From: a virus
Lineage: Duplodnaviria; Caudoviricetes
Length of the DNA stretch: 64,000 nucleotides
Direction: 5' to 3' (one strand)
IMG/VR virus record: IMGVR_UViG_3300032259_000002
Coordinates: 1-64,000 of that record
Below the pieces are notes generated by a model. That model saw only the letters and a program-made list of their open reading frames with translations. It was not told where the DNA came from and did no database searches. Shown piece after piece: positions 1,468 to 62,438 of the stretch. The position numbers and the translations under genes were made by a program. Positions within the stretch are counted from its first letter, which is position 1, and each line of letters begins with the position of its first letter.

Positions 1468-1632
1468 ATGAAGAAAGAAAAAAAGAATAATAAGAAAAAG
1501 AAAAGGGAGCTCAAGAAACAATACTGTTTCACCCTGCTCCCCTCTACTATGGATAAAGTAGAAAAGAAAGCTGATAAAAACTTCGCATCAATATCAGCTA
1601 CAGTGGAATCTATCTTAAGGGAGCATAGTTGA
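1468..1632 (+). CDS. Ribbon-helix-helix (Arc/CopG-like) regulator, 54 aa
   Basis: Manual translation MKKEKKNNKKKKRELKKQYCFTLLPSTMDKVEKKADKNFASISATVESILREHS; strand-helix-helix pattern; AAGGAG SD. Confidence 0.6.
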   Translation: MKKEKKNNKKKKRELKKQYCFTLLPSTMDKVEKKADKNFASISATVESILREHS

Positions 1633-1658
1633 TAGAAATTTATAGGAGGATTATAAAA

Positions 1659-2024
1659 ATGGAAAAGTACTATCCGGCATTACTTGTTATCTTATTTAGT
1701 TTAGGAATTATGTTTGGTAGTTTTATGCAGCATTCTTTTTGTTCTCCGGTAATCGAAGCCCAGGCAGTAGAAATAGTTCAGCAAAGAAAAATGCTAAGAG
1801 ACCAAGAAGATTTATTATCATGGCAAACTTACAATCTTGTAGAATATAAAAGAAAGATAAAAGAGATAAAGAAAAGAATGCGAAACACCGATGCTTTTTT
1901 AAAGAAAGCCGGTGCTCTTTATGGTATCGATTTTATGAAAAAACAAAAGGAAGAATCCGATCTATTATGGGAGGCATTGTCTTCTGAGAATAAAAAATCA
2001 ATGGGGGGAGGAGATGAAAATTAA
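1659..2024 (+). CDS. Membrane-anchored coiled-coil protein
   Basis: AGGAGG SD before ATG 1659; hydrophobic N-terminus followed by coiled coil. Confidence 0.6.
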   Translation: MEKYYPALLVILFSLGIMFGSFMQHSFCSPVIEAQAVEIVQQRKMLRDQEDLLSWQTYNLVEYKRKIKEIKKRMRNTDAFLKKAGALYGIDFMKKQKEESDLLWEALSSENKKSMGGGDEN

Positions 2025-2322
2025 AAAGGCAGCTCTTTGCCCGGAATGCGACGAAGTTTTTAATTTAGATAACTACAAGCAATGCCCTAAATGCCTGAAT
2101 AAGGAATACCTTGTTATTGATTTTCTATTACAAAAAGAAAGGGGAATTCCTTCTCTATCATCTGAAATTCTTGATTTTACTTTTATGGGAATAGATAAAA
2201 AAGTAAAAACATTTAAAATAAGTAAAAGATATTTAAGGATAAATTATAAAAAAGGTATAGTGGAAGAGACTGATTCTTTTATAGGAAATGATTGCTGGAC
2301 AGCTTGTCCGGAGATTAAATAA
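2014..2322 (+). CDS. Zinc-ribbon protein
   Basis: CPEC...CPKC motifs. Confidence 0.65.
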   Translation: MKIKKAALCPECDEVFNLDNYKQCPKCLNKEYLVIDFLLQKERGIPSLSSEILDFTFMGIDKKVKTFKISKRYLRINYKKGIVEETDSFIGNDCWTACPEIK

Positions 2323-2335
2323 GGAGTGATTACTT

Positions 2336-2635
2336 ATGGAGTATTTAAGAAAGAAATTTAAAAAGTGGTTAGGGATAGACAAAACAGAAAAAGAAATTGA
2401 AAGGCTTAAGAGATTATACTCTGATCTAGTCCACATAGGAGTGGATGCCCACTTTAAAGAACCCCACATGATTTTAATTTACTCTAAATTGAAGGGGGGT
2501 CAGATATCCCATATTTCTGCTAATTTTGATAATATAAAAGAGTTACATGCTTGTATAAGAGAATTGAAAAGCAAGTATCATACTAAAAAAGAAATATGGG
2601 ATGATCCCAGGCATCTCAGGAAGTTTGGTTATTGA
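2336..2635 (+). CDS. Hypothetical protein
   Basis: 99-aa ORF with AAGGAG SD, last gene of the short plus-strand operon. Confidence 0.6.
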   Translation: MEYLRKKFKKWLGIDKTEKEIERLKRLYSDLVHIGVDAHFKEPHMILIYSKLKGGQISHISANFDNIKELHACIRELKSKYHTKKEIWDDPRHLRKFGY

Positions 2636-2640
2636 ATTTT

Positions 2641-2676
2641 AATAAAAGAAGACCGCCCTGCCGTAACAGGGCGGTC
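2641..2676 (-). terminator. Rho-independent terminator at convergent junction
   Basis: GACCGCCCTG/CAGGGCGGTC 10-bp stem followed by TTCTTTT on the minus strand. Confidence 0.8.
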
Positions 2677-2732
2677 AATGGCCAGTAAAGGCCCAGGGAG
2701 GAAAGCGTGGTAGGCTAGGCCACGCGGAGAGA

Positions 2733-3047
2733 TCATTTTAAACTATCAATAACTTCTCTAACCCATTCTAGATCAGTATCTGCCCTTTCAAGCTTATCCA
2801 TATCTATTAATATTTTGACAGTTGTTAAAGTTTCCCCTGCCTTACTAATATCTATTTTATTAGACTCATATTGTTTTTTATCAAACACTCCTGCTCTACG
2901 GAGCCTTCTGTTTAATTCAGGGGCCAGATTGAGATGTACTTCGAACCTCTTAATATCATCTTGCATTTTTTCCGGAGATGGGAGTTGTTTTAATAAACTA
3001 CAAGCTGAGAAAGTAAGAACCATAAACAGTATTAGTAAATACTTCAT
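2733..3047 (-). CDS. Lipoprotein, possible spanin component
   Basis: Lipobox FSAC after a hydrophobic leader; directly downstream of the holin. Confidence 0.55.
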   Translation of the reverse strand: MKYLLILFMVLTFSACSLLKQLPSPEKMQDDIKRFEVHLNLAPELNRRLRRAGVFDKKQYESNKIDISKAGETLTTVKILIDMDKLERADTDLEWVREVIDSLK

Positions 3048-3226
3048 TTAGAACCCTCCTTTTCTTTTCCATCAACATACCCCTGGCCCACAACATAAGT
3101 AGCGGCCATAGCTACTATCTGCATTATAGTATCAGCAGATAATCCCAAAGCAAAGGCATCATTGCACGCTGTGAGTAACCCAATTCCTACAGTAATTAAA
3201 AACTTTCTTGATTTTATTTTTTCCAT
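3044..3226 (-). CDS. Holin
   Basis: 60 aa, KSRKF start, two hydrophobic segments, charged tail; near the amidase. Confidence 0.7.
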   Translation of the reverse strand: MEKIKSRKFLITVGIGLLTACNDAFALGLSADTIMQIVAMAATYVVGQGYVDGKEKEGSK

Positions 3227-3262
3227 TTATTAAATCCTCCTTGTTTTTATTTGTTTTTAAAA

Positions 3263-3604
3263 TCAGCCTTTGTAGTAATTATCATATTCTTTATATTTCT
3301 TTTTCAACTCATCAAGCCATTTTCTGCAATTTTCTTTATCCCAGGGATCAATAGCTTTAGAAAAGTCATCACCAAACCTATCTTTGCAATTGTAGATTTG
3401 TTTCTCCAGAAAAGAAATCCTCTCTTCCAGATCTTTCTTATCAAGCCTAACGGTCAGGGTGTCTATATCCTGCTGCTTTCCAAAATATTTAAAAGCGCCA
3501 TAACAACCAGATCCGGCAGTACCCAAAACTGTCAGAAATACTGATAAGGTAATTATAAACTTCATTATATTACTTGCGTTATCGAATCTATCTTTTATTT
3601 TCAT
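3263..3604 (-). CDS. Single-TM coiled-coil protein (possible i-spanin/antiholin)
   Basis: One TM segment then coiled coil with two Cys; inside the lysis cassette. Confidence 0.5.
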   Translation of the reverse strand: MKIKDRFDNASNIMKFIITLSVFLTVLGTAGSGCYGAFKYFGKQQDIDTLTVRLDKKDLEERISFLEKQIYNCKDRFGDDFSKAIDPWDKENCRKWLDELKKKYKEYDNYYKG

Positions 3605-3613
3605 TTTTATAAA

Positions 3614-4195
3614 TCACCTCCTCACTGATTCTATAATAGTTTTAAGTGTATTTCCCGGGCATGCTTTTTTACCAAAATGATAATGACCATAAAGGTCTTT
3701 ATCAGACCATCCCCAGAGATCTTTACAAGCCTGCCATAATATCATAAAACTGAGTAACTGAGCATGATTGGGCTCTGCTCGTTTTGTCCCTGAATGCCCT
3801 TCTCCATTAAAATTACCTACAAACATAACTGCTAAAAACTCAGCATTCTCATCCCCGGCCCTGTTTCTATCTCCCTGGCTCCAAGTAGCTTTATTAAAAT
3901 CATTACAGATATGTATTATTCCTTTTTCATCAATAGCCATCGAGTATAAAAGAGACTCCATTCCCTGTCCTGGAGCTACATGGCATTTGGGGCTTATATG
4001 GTATCTGGCGGTATCTACAATACTCATCCAGCCTAATTCCTGATGAGCAACTAAACCCTTTAATTTTGCAACTTCTCTTAATCTAAATATCCTACCTGAT
4101 GCATTTACTGGAAGAGTCTTTCTTACGTCCAATGGTAAGGGTAAACTCAAAGCCTCTACTACTTCAGTTATTTTTAAAAGTAAAGCATTTTCCAT
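3614..4195 (-). CDS. Endolysin, N-acetylmuramoyl-L-alanine amidase (Amidase_2-like)
   Basis: VAHQ, YHI and YGHYHFGKKACPG zinc-amidase motifs; ATG at 4195 preferred over GTG at 4204. Confidence 0.8.
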   Translation of the reverse strand: MENALLLKITEVVEALSLPLPLDVRKTLPVNASGRIFRLREVAKLKGLVAHQELGWMSIVDTARYHISPKCHVAPGQGMESLLYSMAIDEKGIIHICNDFNKATWSQGDRNRAGDENAEFLAVMFVGNFNGEGHSGTKRAEPNHAQLLSFMILWQACKDLWGWSDKDLYGHYHFGKKACPGNTLKTIIESVRR

Positions 4196-53011: not shown

Positions 53012-55609
53012 CTATTCAAAATCTGTGGTATCAGCTACTAAAATTTCCTCAATATCTGCCCAATTCTCACCAACACTGACTTCCACCGCAAGAGGAACAT
53101 TCACAAAATCAAAAGAAGTACAAGACATCTTTTCTGATATGATATCGATATCCTCTTCTAAAGATCTATCCGGTATAAAAAAAGATAGGTCATCATGAAT
53201 GTTCATTCTTGCTTGAAACTGAGGCTTCTTCTCCTCATAAGCATATAAAGAAAGCCTGTTCATACCATCAACAACAACGTAAGAAGCCGTTCCTTGTATT
53301 GGAGCATTTATTAGTTCATTGTAACTCAAAGGGCCGACTCTTCTTGCTCCAGTTAAAGTCTCCACATATCCATGCTCATTGTAAAATTTCTGGAGCCGGC
53401 CCTGCCAATTCTTCACTCCTTTGAACTCTCCCCAAAAATCCTTTACCAATCTATCAGCCTTTTCTATAGGTAATCCCAGGGAATTAGCCACGGAAGTAAA
53501 ATGAGATCCAAAAAATAAAGGAAATACCCATTCATTTTTAGATCTTTGTCTAAAATCTTTCCATCCTTTTTCATCTAACTCAGAAGACTTTCTTACCCCG
53601 GCACATCTAGGATGGATCTTTAAAATCCTTTCCGCCCATTCCATGTGTATATCATATCCGGTCTCAATGGCATTACAAAAAGTTTTATCCTGGCTGGCCA
53701 TAGCTATGATTCTTGCTTCTAGCTGACCATAGTCAACTGCAACAAACCAAAATCCTTCAGGTGGTACTATCATTCTCCTAATCTCTTTATTCTTTCTTTT
53801 AGGATAATTCTGCATATTAGGGTGTTCCGAACTTGTGCGACCGGTGGAAGTAAAGAGGTGATTGTAATCTGCATGAAGTAATCCATCCGGATAAATAACT
53901 TTATCTATTGAGTCAATATAAGTAGATTTTACTTTTGATATCTCTCTAAAATCTAAAATGAGACCTGCTTCTTTATGTCCTTTATCATTAAAGCTTTTTA
54001 AAACTTCATCATCGGTACTATAAGATCCTTTACTCGTCTCTTTTACTGACTTCAATCCCAAAATGTCTCTAAATAAAAGAACCACTGAATCAGGAGAAGC
54101 GGGATTAAAATCACCGAACTTTCTACCAAATTTTTTAACTGATTTAGCTTTAAAAATCTTAGCCTCTATATCCTCCAACTTCTTTTGGTATTCTTTTGAA
54201 AAACCATCCACGGTATCAAAATCAACCGGGACTCCCTCTGTTTCTGTCACAGCTAAAGTAGTAGCAGTCCTAACCAGATGATGATATGTCCATTCCTGGC
54301 TTTTATGAAGAAGAGCGTCCTGCCTTTCTTCAAGCAAATGAGTCCATTTAGTATCCATTCCATTATACAAAAGAGTTTTATCTAAAGGAGCATTTATTAA
54401 GTTTTTTCTATCCAGATCGGTAAGAGGCTTTAACTTAAAACCAAAATGTAAAAGGCATAAAACATCTAAACTAAGCATGCCTCCACTCTTTTTTGTTCTC
54501 TGATCTAAAGTGTATGCCTGGGCCATTGTATCAGCCCATATACCAGACCGCAAAGGTCTTTGTCCATAATAATGATAAAACCATATTGCCTCAAATTTAA
54601 GGTAGTGGCAGCTCTTCTTTCCCCGGCATTCCATCAAGAAATTACTTATCAAATCTTTTATAGCTTTTCTACTTTTCTCATCCCCTTTCCAAGCTTTGGG
54701 GTGATCTACCGGAAAAGCTATGGTATTTTCAAAAGTACCAATGGCTATGGTCAGAATCCAAGCATCTTTGCATCCAAAAGGTTTTAACTTATTGGTCTCT
54801 ATGTCAATCGATACAGAAGATTCTTGTTTTAGTTTCTCCAGTTCTTTCTCAATCTTTTTAAATTCAGAAGAACTCTTTCCTTCAAAAATCTTTATACCTT
54901 TATCAAAATCTTTATCGTAAACTTTAGCCTCTGGAGAATCCTCATCCATTATAAAGAAAGCAGCTCTTTGTAAATCCATATCAAAGGCTTTTTCATATTC
55001 ATTTTTAAATTTACTATTATTCTTTTTCTTTAGTAAGGAGGGAGTTTGTATTGGAAAATACCAGCAAGTGTGATTCCCTATTTTAATCGGTAATCTTCTG
55101 CCTCGCCATTCATCTATATTACTATAACCTATCACCCACTTTAAAGAGATGGGCCCAAGTCCGATAATGGCAAAGGGTTTTGTTTTCTGAATATCATCTT
55201 CTATTGATTTCCTACAGCACTCTATTTCTGATTCTTTAGGTTGCCTGTGTTTGGGAGTAGGGCATTGAACGCAGTAATTAAATCTAATACCTATGGTCTT
55301 GTTTAAATCTCTCTTGGATTCAAATAGATCTGGAAAGGCTCTTCTTAAGGATTTTCTTAGAACCATTCCAGATTCTCCTTTAAAGTGTATGCCCGTATCC
55401 TCTTCTCTAGGGCCGGGCATTTCTCCTAAAATATAAATCAAAGAATCAGCATCACCATCTGCTGGAACACAAGGCTCATTCACTTGATTAAGAGAACAGG
55501 CTTTGCATCCTTGCTCTCTTAAAAGATTTTTTGGTATTCTACCTAAATTTTGTTTCTTGGCTTTTTTTGTTTCTTTCTTTTTCTTATCTTCAGCAAAGAA
55601 AAATCCCAT
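53012..55609 (-). CDS. Family A DNA polymerase with N-terminal UDG-like domain and 3'-5' exonuclease
   Basis: CxxC..GEMPG..E..G..F.G.SG UDG-like motif; DIET exo; DYGQLEARI, RxxxK...F..FG, IHDD. Confidence 0.92.
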   Translation of the reverse strand: MGFFFAEDKKKKETKKAKKQNLGRIPKNLLREQGCKACSLNQVNEPCVPADGDADSLIYILGEMPGPREEDTGIHFKGESGMVLRKSLRRAFPDLFESKRDLNKTIGIRFNYCVQCPTPKHRQPKESEIECCRKSIEDDIQKTKPFAIIGLGPISLKWVIGYSNIDEWRGRRLPIKIGNHTCWYFPIQTPSLLKKKNNSKFKNEYEKAFDMDLQRAAFFIMDEDSPEAKVYDKDFDKGIKIFEGKSSSEFKKIEKELEKLKQESSVSIDIETNKLKPFGCKDAWILTIAIGTFENTIAFPVDHPKAWKGDEKSRKAIKDLISNFLMECRGKKSCHYLKFEAIWFYHYYGQRPLRSGIWADTMAQAYTLDQRTKKSGGMLSLDVLCLLHFGFKLKPLTDLDRKNLINAPLDKTLLYNGMDTKWTHLLEERQDALLHKSQEWTYHHLVRTATTLAVTETEGVPVDFDTVDGFSKEYQKKLEDIEAKIFKAKSVKKFGRKFGDFNPASPDSVVLLFRDILGLKSVKETSKGSYSTDDEVLKSFNDKGHKEAGLILDFREISKVKSTYIDSIDKVIYPDGLLHADYNHLFTSTGRTSSEHPNMQNYPKRKNKEIRRMIVPPEGFWFVAVDYGQLEARIIAMASQDKTFCNAIETGYDIHMEWAERILKIHPRCAGVRKSSELDEKGWKDFRQRSKNEWVFPLFFGSHFTSVANSLGLPIEKADRLVKDFWGEFKGVKNWQGRLQKFYNEHGYVETLTGARRVGPLSYNELINAPIQGTASYVVVDGMNRLSLYAYEEKKPQFQARMNIHDDLSFFIPDRSLEEDIDIISEKMSCTSFDFVNVPLAVEVSVGENWADIEEILVADTTDFE

Positions 55610-56724
55610 TACTCAAGCTCCTTCTTCTTTATCCTTTTAGATTCATTAGTTCTCATATTATCAAACCATTGTTCTTTTATTCTTGTTGCTATTTGGGCCA
55701 TCATCACTGGGGGAACTGACATGCCCATAAGATACTCAGGTTTTTTATCATTAAAATTATAATCAAAGGGAAATGTCCCTGCCATTAAAATTTCTTTGTT
55801 AAACAATGTTCTTTCAATCTCATAATCATAAGGTAATCCATTTGCTCTTATTGTGGGAAGAACTTTATACGGATGTGATTTTACTTCATTAAAATATGAT
55901 GATTTTGGATGATTTTCAGAAAAATTGTTCCCAGGACTTGTTAATTTCCAATACTTACTGATCATTTTGCTTAATCCAATTGCATCATTATTTCCTTCAA
56001 TTTGCCTTATCTCTTTAAATGGTATTCCAGGTTCATCAAATCTTAAATCAAGATAAGGTATTGGATTAAAAAATCCCATAATACCTTTGCTTTTTATTTT
56101 ATTTACTAAATCTTTTCTTAATGCTATAAAAAATACCCTTTCCCTTCTTTGTGGTACTCCCATTTTTGAAGCATCAAGTAACCACTTTTCAACATAATAT
56201 CCGGCATCATCATATTGTTTTCCTATTTCAAAAAGATATTTCTTAGCATTTCCTAAAATAATTCCTTTGACATTTTCAGCAATTACTATTTTAGGTTGTA
56301 ATCTTTTTGCAAGATTAATAAAATCAAAAAATAAAGTATCAAGGATTTGTTCTGATTGACCTTCCCTGAATTTCTTTTTCTTGCCCCAATCTTTTTCCCT
56401 GTTACCAGACATACTAAAAGAACTACAAGGAGGACTGCCATCAAGTATATCCAAGTCAAATAACTCTTCTGGTAAATCTGTTCTATTTTTAAATTCTTGA
56501 ATAGGTTCAATAAATAAATACTTTGGTTTATGATTAATTTTATAACATTCTGCCATTTTAGGGTCAATCTCATTTGCCCCTAAAACATCAAAACCTGCAA
56601 GCTTATAGCCCATAGTGGGAGCAAAACCACCACAAGCAAAACAAGAAAAAACCTTTAATCCATTTTTCTTTATTTTTTTAAGGTCTTTTAATGACCATTT
56701 ATATGGGAATCTATGATTAGGCAT
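55609..56724 (-). CDS. C5-cytosine DNA methyltransferase
   Basis: GSPPC catalytic motif, ENV, QRRERVF, GMSVPP. Confidence 0.9.
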   Translation of the reverse strand: MPNHRFPYKWSLKDLKKIKKNGLKVFSCFACGGFAPTMGYKLAGFDVLGANEIDPKMAECYKINHKPKYLFIEPIQEFKNRTDLPEELFDLDILDGSPPCSSFSMSGNREKDWGKKKKFREGQSEQILDTLFFDFINLAKRLQPKIVIAENVKGIILGNAKKYLFEIGKQYDDAGYYVEKWLLDASKMGVPQRRERVFFIALRKDLVNKIKSKGIMGFFNPIPYLDLRFDEPGIPFKEIRQIEGNNDAIGLSKMISKYWKLTSPGNNFSENHPKSSYFNEVKSHPYKVLPTIRANGLPYDYEIERTLFNKEILMAGTFPFDYNFNDKKPEYLMGMSVPPVMMAQIATRIKEQWFDNMRTNESKRIKKKELE

Positions 56725-56746: not shown

Positions 56747-57832
56747 CTACTCATCTTTAAAACCCATCACTAAATGAAAAAAACTATCTGATTTTCCGGC
56801 AAGCATTGGTATACTATCTTCTCCGGTGGAATAACAGAATGCTATCTCGTCCACTGCTTGAAGGATGTCTAAAATATGATTGGCATCCATTCTACAAGAA
56901 ATCTCTTCTTCTGAAATATCTTCTTCAAATACAATAGACTCTTTAATGGCCCCATAACCACTTTTTCCGGATACTAAAAGAGTCTCCTCCTCAGAATCAA
57001 GATGGACAATCTGATCTGTTTCTTTAGAAGTAAGTAAAGTGGTTCTTTCTATGGCAGTTAAGAGATTTTCAGGTATCTCCTGAAATTCATTTTCCTCCTC
57101 ATCCCAATGAGCCTCTATGACTGCTTCATAATCAAGGTAGTCTACCTCAGTTAGAAGCTTAGTGTAAACATACACTCCCTCAAAACAAGCAAATATAAAA
57201 TCCTCACTAAAATAGAGTTCAGCAGAAGTATCATTAAGCTCCTTGCTTATATCAAGTATAAGTCTACAAAATACTTCTGGGAGAAGCATTTTAATAGATT
57301 TTTTCCCTAATGTTTTTTCAAGGGAGTATCTGGAGATTCTTTGATTATCGGTTGAATATAGATGGGCTCCCTTTTTATCAGATACAAGGGTTATTCCGAA
57401 TTGATTTCTTTGTAAAGAATTTTTACTTACTGAGATGAGGGTTTTCTTTATACCCATTAAAAAATCTTCTGATAAAGTAAAAGATGGGAGATCGTCGATG
57501 TCAGGTATTTCAAAAATAAAATCAGCTTCAGGGAGGCAGGCAAGTTTAGCATTTGATTTGCCTATTTTAATATTGACCTCATTCCCTTTCTGGTTTACTG
57601 CCATTTTATCTGAGGAATAACTGCTAAGAAGTTTTATGAGAAGTTCCCCAGGAAGACCACAATTCTCAATAGTAACAGCATCCTCATAATCAATTATGAT
57701 TCCCTGTATTCCGTTAAAAGCTATGATCTCTTCATCCGTAAAACAGAAATGCGATAGTATTGGTACTATGTCCTGCGTAGATAGACAAGGTCTGGCCATA
57801 TTCAACTTTTCCAATAAAGACGTTCTTTCCAT
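56747..57832 (-). CDS. dnaN: DNA sliding clamp (Pol III beta-like)
   Basis: 361 aa, three-domain size, PILSHF, STDNQRI, PEADF patterns; clamp loader nearby. Confidence 0.82.
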   Translation of the reverse strand: MERTSLLEKLNMARPCLSTQDIVPILSHFCFTDEEIIAFNGIQGIIIDYEDAVTIENCGLPGELLIKLLSSYSSDKMAVNQKGNEVNIKIGKSNAKLACLPEADFIFEIPDIDDLPSFTLSEDFLMGIKKTLISVSKNSLQRNQFGITLVSDKKGAHLYSTDNQRISRYSLEKTLGKKSIKMLLPEVFCRLILDISKELNDTSAELYFSEDFIFACFEGVYVYTKLLTEVDYLDYEAVIEAHWDEEENEFQEIPENLLTAIERTTLLTSKETDQIVHLDSEEETLLVSGKSGYGAIKESIVFEEDISEEEISCRMDANHILDILQAVDEIAFCYSTGEDSIPMLAGKSDSFFHLVMGFKDE

Positions 57833-58031
57833 TATTTTCTCCTCACTCTTTTAGATTTATTAACAACTTTATAAATACCATTAATTATATATATATAGGC
57901 AAAAAATCTGATTGTAAAGTTTTTATAAGATGGTAGGATAAAAGCCTTTTCTTTGATTCCATTCTTGTGAGAGACTCACCGGGGCCATTTCCTTGAGTAT
58001 CCTCAAGCCAGGTAGCTAAGTATATTTTCAT
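57832..58031 (-). pseudogene. MKIY mini-gene M6, truncated at a (TA)6 tract
   Basis: MKIYLATWLEDTQGNGPGESLTRMESKKRLLSYHLIKTLQSDFLPIYI* (stop 57885-57887); losing one TA adds INGIYKVVNKSKRVRRK* ending in a TAATG overlap with dnaN. Confidence 0.75.
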
Positions 58032-58167
58032 TTATTAATTTCCTAAAAACTTTTTTATCTGATTCTTTGTAATACTGATAGCTAAATAGTATTCTGACCA
58101 AATAACTCTCTCTCTCGATGTAAGTATCTTCTTTATTTTTAAAATTTACTGATAAATATATTTTCAT
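58003..58167 (-). CDS. MKIY mini-gene M5 (intact, 54 aa)
   Basis: MKIYLSVNFKNKEDTYIERESYLVRILFSYQYYKESDKKVFRKLINENILSYLA*; (CT)5 at 58106-58115 in frame. Confidence 0.75.
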   Translation of the reverse strand: MKIYLSVNFKNKEDTYIERESYLVRILFSYQYYKESDKKVFRKLINENILSYLA

Positions 58168-58337
58168 TTAATAAACCTGACAATTCCTTTTTCCACATAA
58201 AATTTAAAATCAAATCCTTTGGTAATGGAACCTACTATATATATATGAGATAAAAGTCTATGACTATTTAATACTTTTGTTAAAGTATGTCCCTGATTAA
58301 TATCTGGTTCTGGCTGAGTAGCTAGATATATTTTCAT
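58164..58337 (-). CDS. MKIY mini-gene M4 (intact, 57 aa)
   Basis: MKIYLATQPEPDINQGHTLTKVLNSHRLLSHIYIVGSITKGFDFKFYVEKGIVRFIK*; (TA)5 at 58236-58245 in frame; ATGA overlaps at both ends. Confidence 0.8.
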   Translation of the reverse strand: MKIYLATQPEPDINQGHTLTKVLNSHRLLSHIYIVGSITKGFDFKFYVEKGIVRFIK

Positions 58338-58487
58338 TCTTCAAAAACACCATTAAGGTATTGCTTAAATAGTTTTCTAGATAGATTCCTAACATAGTAA
58401 AAAGAAATCAAATTAGTCAGGGATTTCATAATTAAAACTCTCTCTCTGATTAGAAACTACTACATCCACTGCTAAGTATATCTTCAA
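58334..58487 (-). pseudogene. MKIY mini-gene M3, out of frame at a (CT)5 tract
   Basis: TTG start; one more AG unit gives MKIYLAVDVVVSNQRERVLIMKSLTNLISFYYVRNLSRKLFKQYLNGVFEE* (51 aa, ATGA overlap). Confidence 0.75.
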
Positions 58488-58643
58488 TTCTTTTCCTCTA
58501 TATGTTTTAAAATAACTTTAAAATCTTGATCAGCCATACCGCCTATTCTATGAAAATGAAAAGACAGTAACCTCTTTGACTTCTTTCTCAGAAGAAACCT
58601 CTCTCTCTTCAATCAAACAAGTACCGGCAAAATATATTTTCAT
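58484..58643 (-). pseudogene. MKIY mini-gene M2, out of frame at a (CT)5 tract
   Basis: One more AG unit gives MKIYFAGTCLIEERERFLLRKKSKRLLSFHFHRIGGMADQDFKVILKHIEEKN* (53 aa, TTGA overlap). Confidence 0.78.
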
Positions 58644-58812
58644 TACTTATCTCTTTTATAATCTATTATAACTAGTAAACTTTTTTTCATTTTATTAGAA
58701 GTTAGGAAATGATCTGCAAAACTGAATAATCTAGAATATTTAAATTTTAATAACAACTCTCTCTTCCATCAACATTCATGATAGAATAACCACCTGCTAA
58801 ATATATTTTCAA
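58643..58812 (-). pseudogene. MKIY mini-gene M1, out of frame at a (CT)4 tract
   Basis: TTG start overlapping the dpdA stop; one fewer AG gives MKIYLAGGYSIMNVDGRELLLKFKYSRLFSFADHFLTSNKMKKSLLVIIDYKRDK* (55 aa, TAATG overlap). Confidence 0.78.
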
Positions 58813-59609
58813 AAGAAATTACCTCTCAGTAAAGATCTATTGAAAGGCCTATCTGGAAGGTACTTTTCAAGATCAAGAAAATAAATAATATTAAGCTCAT
58901 CTCTTTTTTTATAATCAGCAGAAAGCTCTTCGTAGTTATAGCCCTTTTCCTCGAAATAATGGAGAATATGGTCTTGGACTATTTTTGAATAATTAGAAAA
59001 ATGCTGGCCTTCTATACCAGCTTTGGGAGATTTATCAGATACCACTACCTTATGTGGTATTTTTGAAAAATCGTAACCATCTCTATTTCTGATAGGAACT
59101 ATGACCGAGCCGAAGCGGCCGGTCTTTACCCAAGAAGTACTATCAACAGAAAACCAAGGATAGCGGAGAAGTATCTTCAGTGAGGTAACTCCAAAGCCAT
59201 GTATCTTACAAACAGGCCAGCCTTCTTGATCAGTCAGATACTTAGCAAATAAACCGTCCAGCCAGGGCATCAACTTTTTGCCCGGAGTCCCCACCATACC
59301 ACCAAGGGCTATGTAATCGTATCCCTCTTCTAAATATTTTTTAAGGTATTTTATATCGGTATTAAAATGAAAACAAGGTAGTGGATTCAATCCTTTTTTC
59401 TCAAGGTATTTTTGATTCTTATAAGTGGCTTCCGGATCTCCAATCACATCAAGATTGGCATACACTGTTAAATACTTTTTGTACTCTTTAATAAAATCAG
59501 CATATTCATCTATACTTATTTCAATACCTTTTGACCAAGCAGAGAAAGCACCACTATCAAGAAATAAATCTACTTTATTTTCTGACTTATCACTTCTTCT
59601 TTTTCTCAT
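58809..59609 (-). CDS. dpdA: DpdA-like 7-deazaguanine DNA transglycosylase core (N-terminally short)
   Basis: LFLDSGAFS, ANLDVI, PCFH, IALGG, IHGFG, SVDSTSW TGT-like motifs; adjacent to queC and folE. Confidence 0.85.
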   Translation of the reverse strand: MRKRRSDKSENKVDLFLDSGAFSAWSKGIEISIDEYADFIKEYKKYLTVYANLDVIGDPEATYKNQKYLEKKGLNPLPCFHFNTDIKYLKKYLEEGYDYIALGGMVGTPGKKLMPWLDGLFAKYLTDQEGWPVCKIHGFGVTSLKILLRYPWFSVDSTSWVKTGRFGSVIVPIRNRDGYDFSKIPHKVVVSDKSPKAGIEGQHFSNYSKIVQDHILHYFEEKGYNYEELSADYKKRDELNIIYFLDLEKYLPDRPFNRSLLRGNFF

Positions 59610-59643: not shown

Positions 59644-60336
59644 CTAATCCCTTTCAAAAAGAGGGTCTTCGATGCCAGCATGATCAAAACCTTTTTGTCT
59701 GAGCAGACAAGCATGGCAGTGACCACATGGAGGATATTGCCCATTATAGCAGGTATGAGAATAGGCCAAGGCTTCCATACAGCCTTCAAGCTTACAGGCT
59801 AAATCCACTGAATCCCTTTTGGTCATAAACATTAAAGGGGTATGTATATCAAAGACAAAATCAGAACCATAAATACCTTCCCCAAGAGCTTTAGTCATAG
59901 CCACTATAAAAGTATGCCGGCAATCATGGTAGCCTGCAAAGTCCTCTTGACAAACTCCGGTTACCATATCAGTTATACCAAGACAGGCCGCTCGGTTAGC
60001 AGCTATAGTCAGAAAAAGAATATTCCTGGCTGGAACAAAAGTTGGCTCTACCCCTTCTGGTAATTCTTCATGAGATGGGTATTGACCTACTTCATAATCA
60101 CTATTTACAAGAGGGCTGGTTCCTTTAAGAACTGGGCCCAACTCAATGACCTCATGACTTGCTACCCCTGCCATTTTTGCTATCTTTTTAGCAGACTCTA
60201 ACTCAATAGAGTGTTTCTGACCATAATCAAAAGTAACGGCATGGACTTCATCAAATTTACTTTTAGCCCAGAATAGGCAAGTTGTGGAATCCTGGCCACC
60301 GCTCAAAACAACAAGGCATTTGCTCTTCTCTTTCAT
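59644..60336 (-). CDS. queC: 7-cyano-7-deazaguanine synthase
   Basis: SGGQDS PP-loop, VPARN, CY...CGHCHAC. Confidence 0.95.
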   Translation of the reverse strand: MKEKSKCLVVLSGGQDSTTCLFWAKSKFDEVHAVTFDYGQKHSIELESAKKIAKMAGVASHEVIELGPVLKGTSPLVNSDYEVGQYPSHEELPEGVEPTFVPARNILFLTIAANRAACLGITDMVTGVCQEDFAGYHDCRHTFIVAMTKALGEGIYGSDFVFDIHTPLMFMTKRDSVDLACKLEGCMEALAYSHTCYNGQYPPCGHCHACLLRQKGFDHAGIEDPLFERD

Positions 60337-61673: not shown

Positions 61674-62438
61674 TTAACCGTTAATCTCTTCAAGAATCTT
61701 CATAATGGCGTGAGCCTGACCATACTGTATACCGAGAGTGCTTGGACTGATGGTGTAGCCTTCCTTGGCAACTTTCTCTCCAATCTTCTCTTTATCCCAC
61801 TTTGGGTGCTTGCAGGTATAGTACTGAATACGTGAAATGGCCGAAGGCTTTTTGTCTTTCTTTTCCTTCTTAGGCTTTTTCTCAGCCTTACCCTTACCTT
61901 TAGACTTGCCCTTCTTGGCAGGCTTTTCTTCTTCCTCTTCCTCTTCCTCAGGGTCTTCCTCAGGCTCGGATTTTTTGGATTTTTTCCCTTTAGAAGAAGA
62001 CTTGCCCTTACCTTTAGACTTGCCCTTCTTTGCAGGCTTTTCCTCTTCCTCTTCTTCAGGGTCTTCCTCTTCCTCTTCTTCAGGGTCTTCCTCTTCCTCT
62101 TCTTCAGGGTCTTCCTCTTCCTCTTCTTCAGGGTCTTCCTCTTCCTCAGGCTCGGATTTTTTGGATTTTTTGCCTTTAGACTTGCCCTTCTTTGCAGGCT
62201 TTTCCTCTTCCTCTTCATCAGATTCCGAATCAGGGAAATCAGCAACAGCCTTGTTCTTCTCAAGAGCACTTACGGCTTTATTCAGCCAATCTTGGGCCTC
62301 TTTAGAAAGACCATCAAACTTCTTGTCAGAAAGATCGTCTGACTCGTCTGCCAGCCTTTCAAGATATTCCTGGTAATCCTCTCCTTTGTTTTGTTTAATC
62401 TTGATAGCCTTTTCCAGTTCTTTTCTTATAACACTCAT
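61674..62438 (-). CDS. Glu/Lys low-complexity protein with folded N- and C-terminal ends
   Basis: AGGAGG SD; acidic repeats alternate with KPAKKGKSKG blocks. Confidence 0.75.
   Translation of the reverse strand: MSVIRKELEKAIKIKQNKGEDYQEYLERLADESDDLSDKKFDGLSKEAQDWLNKAVSALEKNKAVADFPDSESDEEEEEKPAKKGKSKGKKSKKSEPEEEEDPEEEEEEDPEEEEEEDPEEEEEEDPEEEEEEKPAKKGKSKGKGKSSSKGKKSKKSEPEEDPEEEEEEEEKPAKKGKSKGKGKAEKKPKKEKKDKKPSAISRIQYYTCKHPKWDKEKIGEKVAKEGYTISPSTLGIQYGQAHAIMKILEEING
62041..62148. repeat. 24-bp tandem repeat (~4 copies)
   Basis: cagggtcttcctcttcctcttctt at 62057, 62081, 62105, and partial at 62129. Confidence 0.85.

Follow-up and report, generated by a model that had tools for sequence, protein, structure and literature searches.

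DpdA is a 7-deazaguanine DNA transglycosylase, which exchanges guanine in DNA for a 7-deazaguanine base. Many phages rely on it to conceal guanine from restriction enzymes and Cas9, and to our knowledge no determinant of its sequence preference is known. Here we describe a dpdA locus in which an open reading frame (ORF) for the core of the enzyme is followed by an array of six mini-genes. The locus lies in a 64-kb stretch of DNA, hereafter the window, that spans positions 1 to 64,000 of the 77-kb linear IMG/VR virus record IMGVR_UViG_3300032259_000002, which is estimated to be 76% complete. The closest described relatives are the DpdA1 enzymes of the Queuovirinae phages CAjan, 9g, iggy, Bas22 (KurtStettler) and JG054, which share 41-45% identity with the window's core in alignments that open at the DSGAF strand, and whose genes stand in the same folE/queC, dpdA, clamp, polymerase order. 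Unlike the DpdA of the window, these enzymes are single chains of 306-312 residues with the N-terminal module fused to the core and with no reported microsatellite, and a profile of the module found no stand-alone copies in these phages. The motif specificity of DpdA1 varies, from GA plus GGC in CAjan to GA only in iggy (PMC10484667).

Three further systems bear comparison. The bacterial DpdA of S. Montevideo (crystal structure 7UI4), which works with DpdB, has a TIM-barrel transglycosylase fold that is the best match of a fused homolog of the window's enzyme, but it is one chain of about 410 residues that contains the large insertion Ins8 and a zinc site of the form CXCX2CX22H. Its partner DpdB is an ATPase, whereas the partner proposed for the window is a fragment of the barrel itself. 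The Type I HsdS systems and the Type III mod 'phasevarions' switched by simple sequence repeats (SSRs) combine one catalytic machine with alternative specificity parts and repeat-based switching. By analogy, the window likewise has one catalytic machine, alternative parts and repeats, although the known systems are bacterial methyltransferases with whole-domain subunits and the window would have a phage base-exchange enzyme in which the swapped part is a quarter of the barrel. Finally, in TIM-barrel fragment complementation (HisF halves, PRAI 1-6 plus 7-8), separately made fragments assemble into an active (beta/alpha)8 enzyme. Those fragments are laboratory constructs, whereas the 2+6 split in the window is natural, conserved and multi-copy.

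We propose that the window encodes a naturally split DpdA, that its six-strand core gains the rest of the barrel in trans from one of several diversified quarter-barrel subunits, and that microsatellites switch these subunits; we put the probability of this reading at about 0.6. The genes concerned are the following:

58809..59609, minus strand: DpdA catalytic core, 266 residues, predicted barrel strands 3-8 (phrog_887 and homolog alignments A1 and A4)
58643..58812, minus strand: M1, starts at a TTG that shares TTGA with the dpdA stop, frame break in (AG)4 at 58757-58764
58484..58643, minus strand: M2, starts at an ATG that shares TAATG with the M1 stop, frame break in (AG)5 at 58599-58608
58334..58487, minus strand: M3, starts at a TTG that shares TTGA with the M2 stop, frame break in (AG)5 at 58438-58447
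58164..58337, minus strand: M4, intact, 57 residues, ATGA overlap with M3, module profile E 3e-13
58003..58167, minus strand: M5, intact, 54 residues, ATGA overlap with M4, module profile E 1e-6
57885..58031, minus strand: M6, 48 residues, ends in a (TA)6 tract at 57886-57897, module profile E 1e-13

The DpdA ORF starts 34 nt past queC, has its own Shine-Dalgarno sequence (AAGGAAAG) and reads LFLDSGAFS from residue 15; on these points the initial annotation was correct. It matches the queuine tRNA-ribosyltransferase family phrog_887 with an E-value of 6.6e-63 over profile positions 50-280 only, and it begins 14 residues ahead of the DSGAF strand. Thus, unlike phage DpdA1, it is without fused strands 1 and 2, and no module was found upstream of it in any frame. 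Residues D18 (LFLDSGAF), D54 (YANLD) and D156 (SVDST) are invariant in an alignment of 83 homologs (A4), and by motif order they are presumably the equivalents of Asp95, Asp130 and Asp256 of 7UI4, where the three active-site Asp residues have been assigned roles as the acid/base in DSGxF, in base binding and as the nucleophile (PMC10164549). The core contains only two Cys (LPCFH and PVCKIHGF) and no CXCX2CX22H motif; it is therefore not a bacterial DpdA (bDpdA), and the nearest group is phage DpdA1, of which the core itself is an ordinary relative. The six barrel strands originally counted in the core are consistent with the AlphaFold2 models of homologs. Pfam gave no match for the core or for the mini-genes.

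The six units begin on the minus strand at 58812 (TTG), 58643, 58487 (TTG), 58337, 58167 and 58031, and follow the pattern MKIY(L/F)(A/S)...RLLS(Y/F). They have the characteristics of a mini-protein family with a length of about 45-70 residues, an M-K-I-Y-L-A strand, an R-L-L-S-Y/F strand with an invariant Ser, and a position beside dpdA on the same strand; residues M1 and S30 are invariant in an alignment of the minis (A3). From dpdA through M6 the junctions are TTGA, TAATG, TTGA, ATGA, ATGA and a 29-nt overlap between M5 and M6. The tandem units reported by the initial annotation between dpdA and the clamp gene are therefore present with these junctions. Its description of six mini-genes in an unbroken overlap chain holds for dpdA and M1 to M6 once frames are restored, but the last TAATG appears only if one TA is removed at 57886, and no more than two of the six units, M4 and M5, are whole in this assembly. 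M6 is truncated; minus one TA unit it would be a protein of 65 residues with a basic tail and a stop in TAATG with the start of the clamp gene. In M1, M2 and M3 the coding sequence is divided between two frames, and the N-terminal and C-terminal halves match the module profile separately; the second frame ends exactly in the stop/start overlap with the next unit. The breaks in these three units lie at (AG)4-5 tracts, and every out-of-frame state is one unit from being in frame, with one GA unit to be lost in M1 and one to be gained in both M2 and M3.

For each unit of the window, the closest relative belongs to another phage and not to the same array. The nearest relative of M1 (subtype AGG..MNV.GRE..RLFSF) is an intact mini, L041:3547, with 46% identity over 57 residues across the break. 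M2 has an intact ortholog at L043:6309-6515 (49% over 53 residues), and the ortholog of M3 adjoins it in the same order; an M1-type unit stands directly after the core of that locus. M4, which has an in-frame (AT)5 tract at 58236-58246, is 52% identical to P0152, and M5 has an in-frame (GA)5 tract at 58106-58116. At the DNA level, the only repeats within the array are the tracts and some 22 nt at each start codon, and the array is therefore not a recent tandem duplication; the six modules may instead be old, distinct subfamilies common to other phages. Recurring subtypes are recognizable across phages, many with basic C-terminal tails. The module profile matches nothing else in the window or in the 77-kb genome, and the array is thus not a product of chance. 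PHROGs gave no match for M4, M5, M6 or the C-terminal half of M1, and two other fragments matched only weakly to families of unknown function. Many minis, including M5 (58003-58031), end in N-E-N-I-(F/L)-S, which is the conserved start of the next mini (ATGAAAATAT...) read in another frame; in units with this tail, M5 among them, the stop of the ATGA overlap is not in register.

What, then, do the mini-genes encode? Of the 120 proteins that match the core best, some 80 likewise lack the N-terminus (N-less cores) and about 35 have an extension of 40-65 residues, which reads MKIYLAG..(ERE)..RLLS(F/Y) ahead of the DSGAF strand. In cultured Queuovirinae DpdA1 (Bas22 and JG054) the fused module has the form MNVFMAA..HILESYHY. 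The initial annotation had suggested that the peptides are homologous to the N-termini of full-length DpdAs, and a profile comparison agrees: 58 stand-alone units aligned to 55 fused DpdAs by hhalign with 97.4% probability (E 1.5e-11), unit positions 1-39 falling on DpdA positions 1-43. Searches against PDB sequences were weak, with no phmmer match for a fused homolog and, for a profile, only 7UI4 at E 0.14, and therefore folds were compared. An AlphaFold2 model of a natural fused homolog (L055), built from an alignment of fused sequences only, has a mean predicted local distance difference test score (pLDDT) of 90.4. In it, strand 1 spans residues 2-6 and strand 2 spans residues 29-33, with helices after each (8-24 and 34-47); the DSGAF strand at 53-57 and five further barrel strands follow. 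The best fold match of the model is 7UI4 (Z 19.4, root-mean-square deviation 3.3 A, 264 residues), with model residues 1..331 aligned to residues 4..410 of the chain; on the Z. mobilis tRNA-guanine transglycosylase (TGT), the match starts at residue 40. Models of fused homologs reach Z-scores of 15.2 and 19.4 against 7UI4 and about 18-19 against bacterial, archaeal and human TGT. Because of the L055 model and its match to 7UI4, the module is predicted to be the first quarter of the barrel, strand 1-helix 1-strand 2-helix 2, as had been assigned to it at the outset, and the ORF of the window to be the six-strand core of strands 3-8.

The initial annotation had also raised a -1 slip at the dpdA stop, which would give a circularly permuted fusion of the core to M1. 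The 150 best profile matches lend this no support, in that the DpdA-length proteins among them (P0213 and P0258) carry the module at the N-terminus; the other longer matches are tandem double modules or a fusion of a module to an HNH endonuclease. A separate observation concerns the fused DpdAs in alignments A1 and A5, including the cultured DpdA1 enzymes, which have a Met about 5-11 residues before LDSGAF, about where N-less cores start. Judging from these sequences, internal initiation in the fused genes could yield a core isoform.

The arrangement is not peculiar to this phage: it is widespread, and the search of metagenomes for truncated dpdA genes with module arrays that had been called for found them widely. 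In 81 loci fetched via the core (80 from IMG/VR and one NCBI contig), all stop-to-stop ORFs were searched with the module profile. The 213 matches at E<0.01 all lie on the strand of DpdA; the opposite strand, although richer in ORFs, has no match. The modules, 181 of them intact and stand-alone and 28 fused, either follow the core directly or precede it by no more than 500 nt. Of the 48 N-less cores, 46 have between one and five clearly scoring stand-alone modules within 4 kb. Near the remaining two there are units that have diverged or a fused module that is broken, so that modules accompany 48 of 48. The order of DpdA, one or more minis, clamp and polymerase recurs in relatives (L001, L043, Bas22 and JG054, the modules being fused in the latter two). 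A profile search of 1.84 billion cluster representatives yielded 587 members, and nearly all of the best 150 of these have 41-117 residues. Three minis chosen without reference to DpdA all proved to have a DpdA-like ORF as a neighbor; for one of them, on a short contig, the neighbor is only the C-terminal fragment of such an ORF.

An alternative role for the minis would be elsewhere, as decoys or regulators that compete with the N-module in cis, or in interference with host TGT or Dpd enzymes. The occurrence of extra minis beside fused DpdAs with a complete barrel is what such a role would lead one to expect. It does not explain why none of the 48 N-less cores examined is without modules, why the core alone has six strands, or why the minis are translationally chained to the core gene, and we consider it very unlikely.

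Two further variants of the locus were noticed in the survey. At L101:1064-2894 and in the P0003 locus, two tandem DpdA paralogs, one with a short fused module (268 residues) and one N-less (298 residues), are followed by a mini-gene. The cultured Edwardsiella phage vB_EpM_ZHS (L099, OM621816.1) has at 1489-3640 an N-less DpdA of 266 residues followed by two hypothetical proteins, of which ZHS_62 (MKIFLAG..HILVSF) matches the module profile weakly (E 5.6e-4) and ZHS_63 (VKVFLVVG..RVLVSF) is a module candidate by eye only; a nucleoside 2-deoxyribosyltransferase gene comes after these candidates. This phage may offer a laboratory system for a split DpdA.

Could the array consist of redundant, partly decayed paralogs, in which one module suffices, the rest are leftovers of duplication or horizontal transfer, and the frameshifts are ordinary decay at slippery codons? 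Three of the six units are indeed frame-broken and one is truncated, and the L001 locus, which has the synteny of the window, manages with a single unit of 65 residues that overlaps the core stop. Stand-alone modules are, however, under purifying selection (pooled ratio of nonsynonymous to synonymous polymorphism, pN/pS, of 0.22 for 28 orthologous pairs), and module subtypes, and even their order, recur between phages. Moreover, beyond the break the frames of the broken units remain open as far as the stop/start overlaps, in which they end exactly, and alignments of these units with intact orthologs from other phages run through the break. Both observations speak against decay.

The microsatellites bear on the same question. 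The window contains five dinucleotide tracts of at least five units, all of them inside the array. In 663 kb of related loci there are 69 (GA) tracts of at least four units on the coding strand and no (TC) tracts, and 48 of the 69, the longer ones, are inside modules, which make up no more than 7% of the DNA. The (GA)n tract encodes an R-E-R-E loop motif, and codon choice favors the repeat: pure GA-alternating codons are used for 40% of RE/ER dipeptides in modules, whereas the remaining long ORFs of these loci use them for 10% (p 2e-23). Breaks fall at tracts of at least five units in 14 of 19 frame-broken modules; modules with such tracts number 24 intact and 14 broken, and those without number about 180 intact and 5 broken. 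Five fused DpdAs are broken at the same tract site. The tracts are hypervariable in nature. A pattern scan of metagenomes of the Joint Genome Institute for one orthologous fused module, with records merged into 12 distinct contigs, returned tract alleles of 11, 14, 15, 17 and 19 nt, with two in frame; one in-frame allele shares its flank with the 19-nt out-of-frame allele. That this tract is out of frame in 10 of the 12 contigs is about what neutral drift among three phases would give and speaks for decay, whereas the codon preference speaks against it. Taking both sides together, we regard decay as an unlikely account of the array. Two traits of SSR contingency loci are present, namely a tract inside the coding region at which unit changes shift the frame (in M1-M3) and in-frame and out-of-frame alleles among near-identical sequences (in relatives). 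As a curiosity only, published DpdA1 enzymes target GA, or GA plus GGC (PMC10484667), and the GA tract would therefore itself be dense in likely target sites.

The recurrence of breaks at one conserved site in many loci would also fit recoding, in which the seemingly broken genes give full-length modules through ribosomal frameshifting or transcriptional slippage at the GA tract, and all six are expressed. Under recoding, though, the same motif would have to direct both kinds of shift, since the 19 broken modules need +1 in 9 cases and -1 in 10, and the tract, as inferred from its sequence, is not a canonical slippery heptamer. Natural alleles that differ by whole GA units, some of them in frame, point instead to change at the level of DNA. 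We give recoding little chance of being correct.

Dinucleotide tracts can stutter in amplified libraries, and our data are contig-level, from the three runs of sediment metagenomes that hold window sequence; the breaks could thus be an assembly or sequencing artefact in genes that are really all intact. The source contig of the window phage, with a depth of 84, is however identical to the window. Contigs of low depth from two other samples agree with the window throughout the stretches that they span, the M2 tract among them, apart from one TA unit. The same kind of break is also found in many independent assemblies, and an artefact is extremely improbable. In run X2, two contigs of depth 2.7 end at 58599/58600, in the M2 GA tract, which may reflect a graph branch at a polymorphic tract or mere low coverage.

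We return to the split, switchable DpdA and how it might work. The 266-residue core, with strands 3-8 and three conserved Asp, would be unable to close a (beta/alpha)8 barrel alone. Each mini-gene would be translated by coupling to the preceding gene, and a stand-alone strand 1-helix 1-strand 2-helix 2 module would dock on the core in trans and complete the enzyme. The modules differ in loops predicted to lie on the active-site face of the barrel, and therefore the core probably forms several holoenzymes with different DNA-context preferences, which would give a wider or more varied set of replaced guanines. Differences in specificity between modules would fit the structural work on 7UI4, in which the strand 1/helix 1 loop contributes to the DNA-binding surface, the strand 2/helix 2 loop may take part in sequence recognition, and the catalytic acid/base Asp95 lies two residues before an insertion in the strand 3/helix 3 loop (Ins3, residues 97-109) (PMC10164549). 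Microsatellites, mainly (GA)n, would slip by whole units and turn single modules off and on, and phage populations would consequently carry mixed module repertoires. In loci that have a fused DpdA and extra modules, loss of frame in the fused module could release the core to pair with modules in trans. We infer that such switching may be adaptive.

Several observations weigh against this proposal. Extra minis stand beside a fused, apparently complete DpdA in 22 of 28 loci, and therefore completing the missing quarter cannot be the only role of the modules. With only two whole modules in this assembly, partial decay fits as well. The GA tracts of the window are short (4-5 units), and no GA-tract length variant of the window phage was found in the contigs of the three runs. 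The sole variant seen in this phage is the TA unit, absent at 57886 from a single contig of depth 2 (run X3, an independent sample), which gives the 65-residue M6. Moreover, a first AlphaFold2 model (P0096), from a shallower, mixed alignment, left the module at pLDDT 44-69; the fused-only alignment used for L055 raised the confidence of the module.

A bolder form of the proposal is a stochastic combinatorial system, in which one core and interchangeable two-strand modules choose the guanines that receive 7-deazaguanine and each module has its own microsatellite switch, so that the phage hedges against diverse restriction. If each module has its own switch, a single burst would yield virions with different modification patterns. 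We advance this form only tentatively and consider it possible but less than probable.

The array and the genes around it have the minus-strand order folE, queC, DpdA ORF, mini-gene array of about 0.95 kb, DnaN-like clamp gene and PolA-type polymerase. The neighbors with assigned coordinates are the following:

59644..60336, minus strand: queC (7-cyano-7-deazaguanine synthase), Pfam QueC E 1.3e-62, directly upstream of the DpdA core
56747..57832, minus strand: sliding-clamp (DnaN-like) gene, closes the array, assigned by Pfam DNA_pol3_beta and synteny
53012-55609, minus strand: PolA-type DNA polymerase, 865 residues, whose counterpart in related loci has Pfam UDG and DNA_pol_A matches

The N-terminal DNA_pol3_beta domain of the clamp gene scores 27.6 bits against a cut-off of 24.4, and its central and C-terminal domains fall below theirs. 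With queC and folE adjoining it, the DpdA core has a gene context for synthesis of preQ0 as in phage DpdA1. A search of cultured phages by blastn found nothing beyond short queC matches, and an Rfam scan of 57600-59000 gave no match. Directly upstream of the polymerase on the coding strand is a 371-residue ORF (55609-56724, minus strand) that resembles a cytosine-5 DNA methyltransferase by eye; if it is one, the same block would hold a second DNA-modification activity. Upstream of the phosphoribosyltransferase (PRTase), folE, queC and dpdA genes lies a 254-residue ORF (61674-62438, minus strand) made up mostly of alternating acidic (PEEEEEE) and basic (KKGKSKGK) low-complexity repeats. In related loci, an HNH-type homing endonuclease sequence is fused to a mini-gene (P0192, 218 residues) and another to the FolE N-terminus (L043:2696-3838), and the FolE gene of the P0003 locus has a faint Pfam HNH match. 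The fusions to the mini-gene and to FolE suggest traffic of mobile elements through the modification gene block.

A literature search yielded no paper that connects DpdA to split genes, frameshifts or phase variation, and the 6+2 split, the stand-alone N-module family, its multiplicity and subtypes, and the recurrent microsatellite breaks were not found in the papers searched. Phage enzymes of the DpdA3 and DpdA4 subfamilies have not been made active when expressed alone (PMC10516641), and the split arrangement may bear on this inactivity if those subfamilies are split. If the modules complete the barrel and carry DNA-reading loops, they would provide a direct experimental handle on specificity, in which a mini is swapped and the motif is read. 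The locus would be a natural, widespread example of a TIM-barrel enzyme made from a 6+2 split with many alternative partners, and microsatellite switching within the phage's own anti-restriction machinery would, if true, be an unusual form of bet-hedging on the side of the virus. Should the bolder form of the proposal hold, DpdA would be the first natural enzyme family to have its specificity determined by the exchange of one quarter of a TIM barrel.

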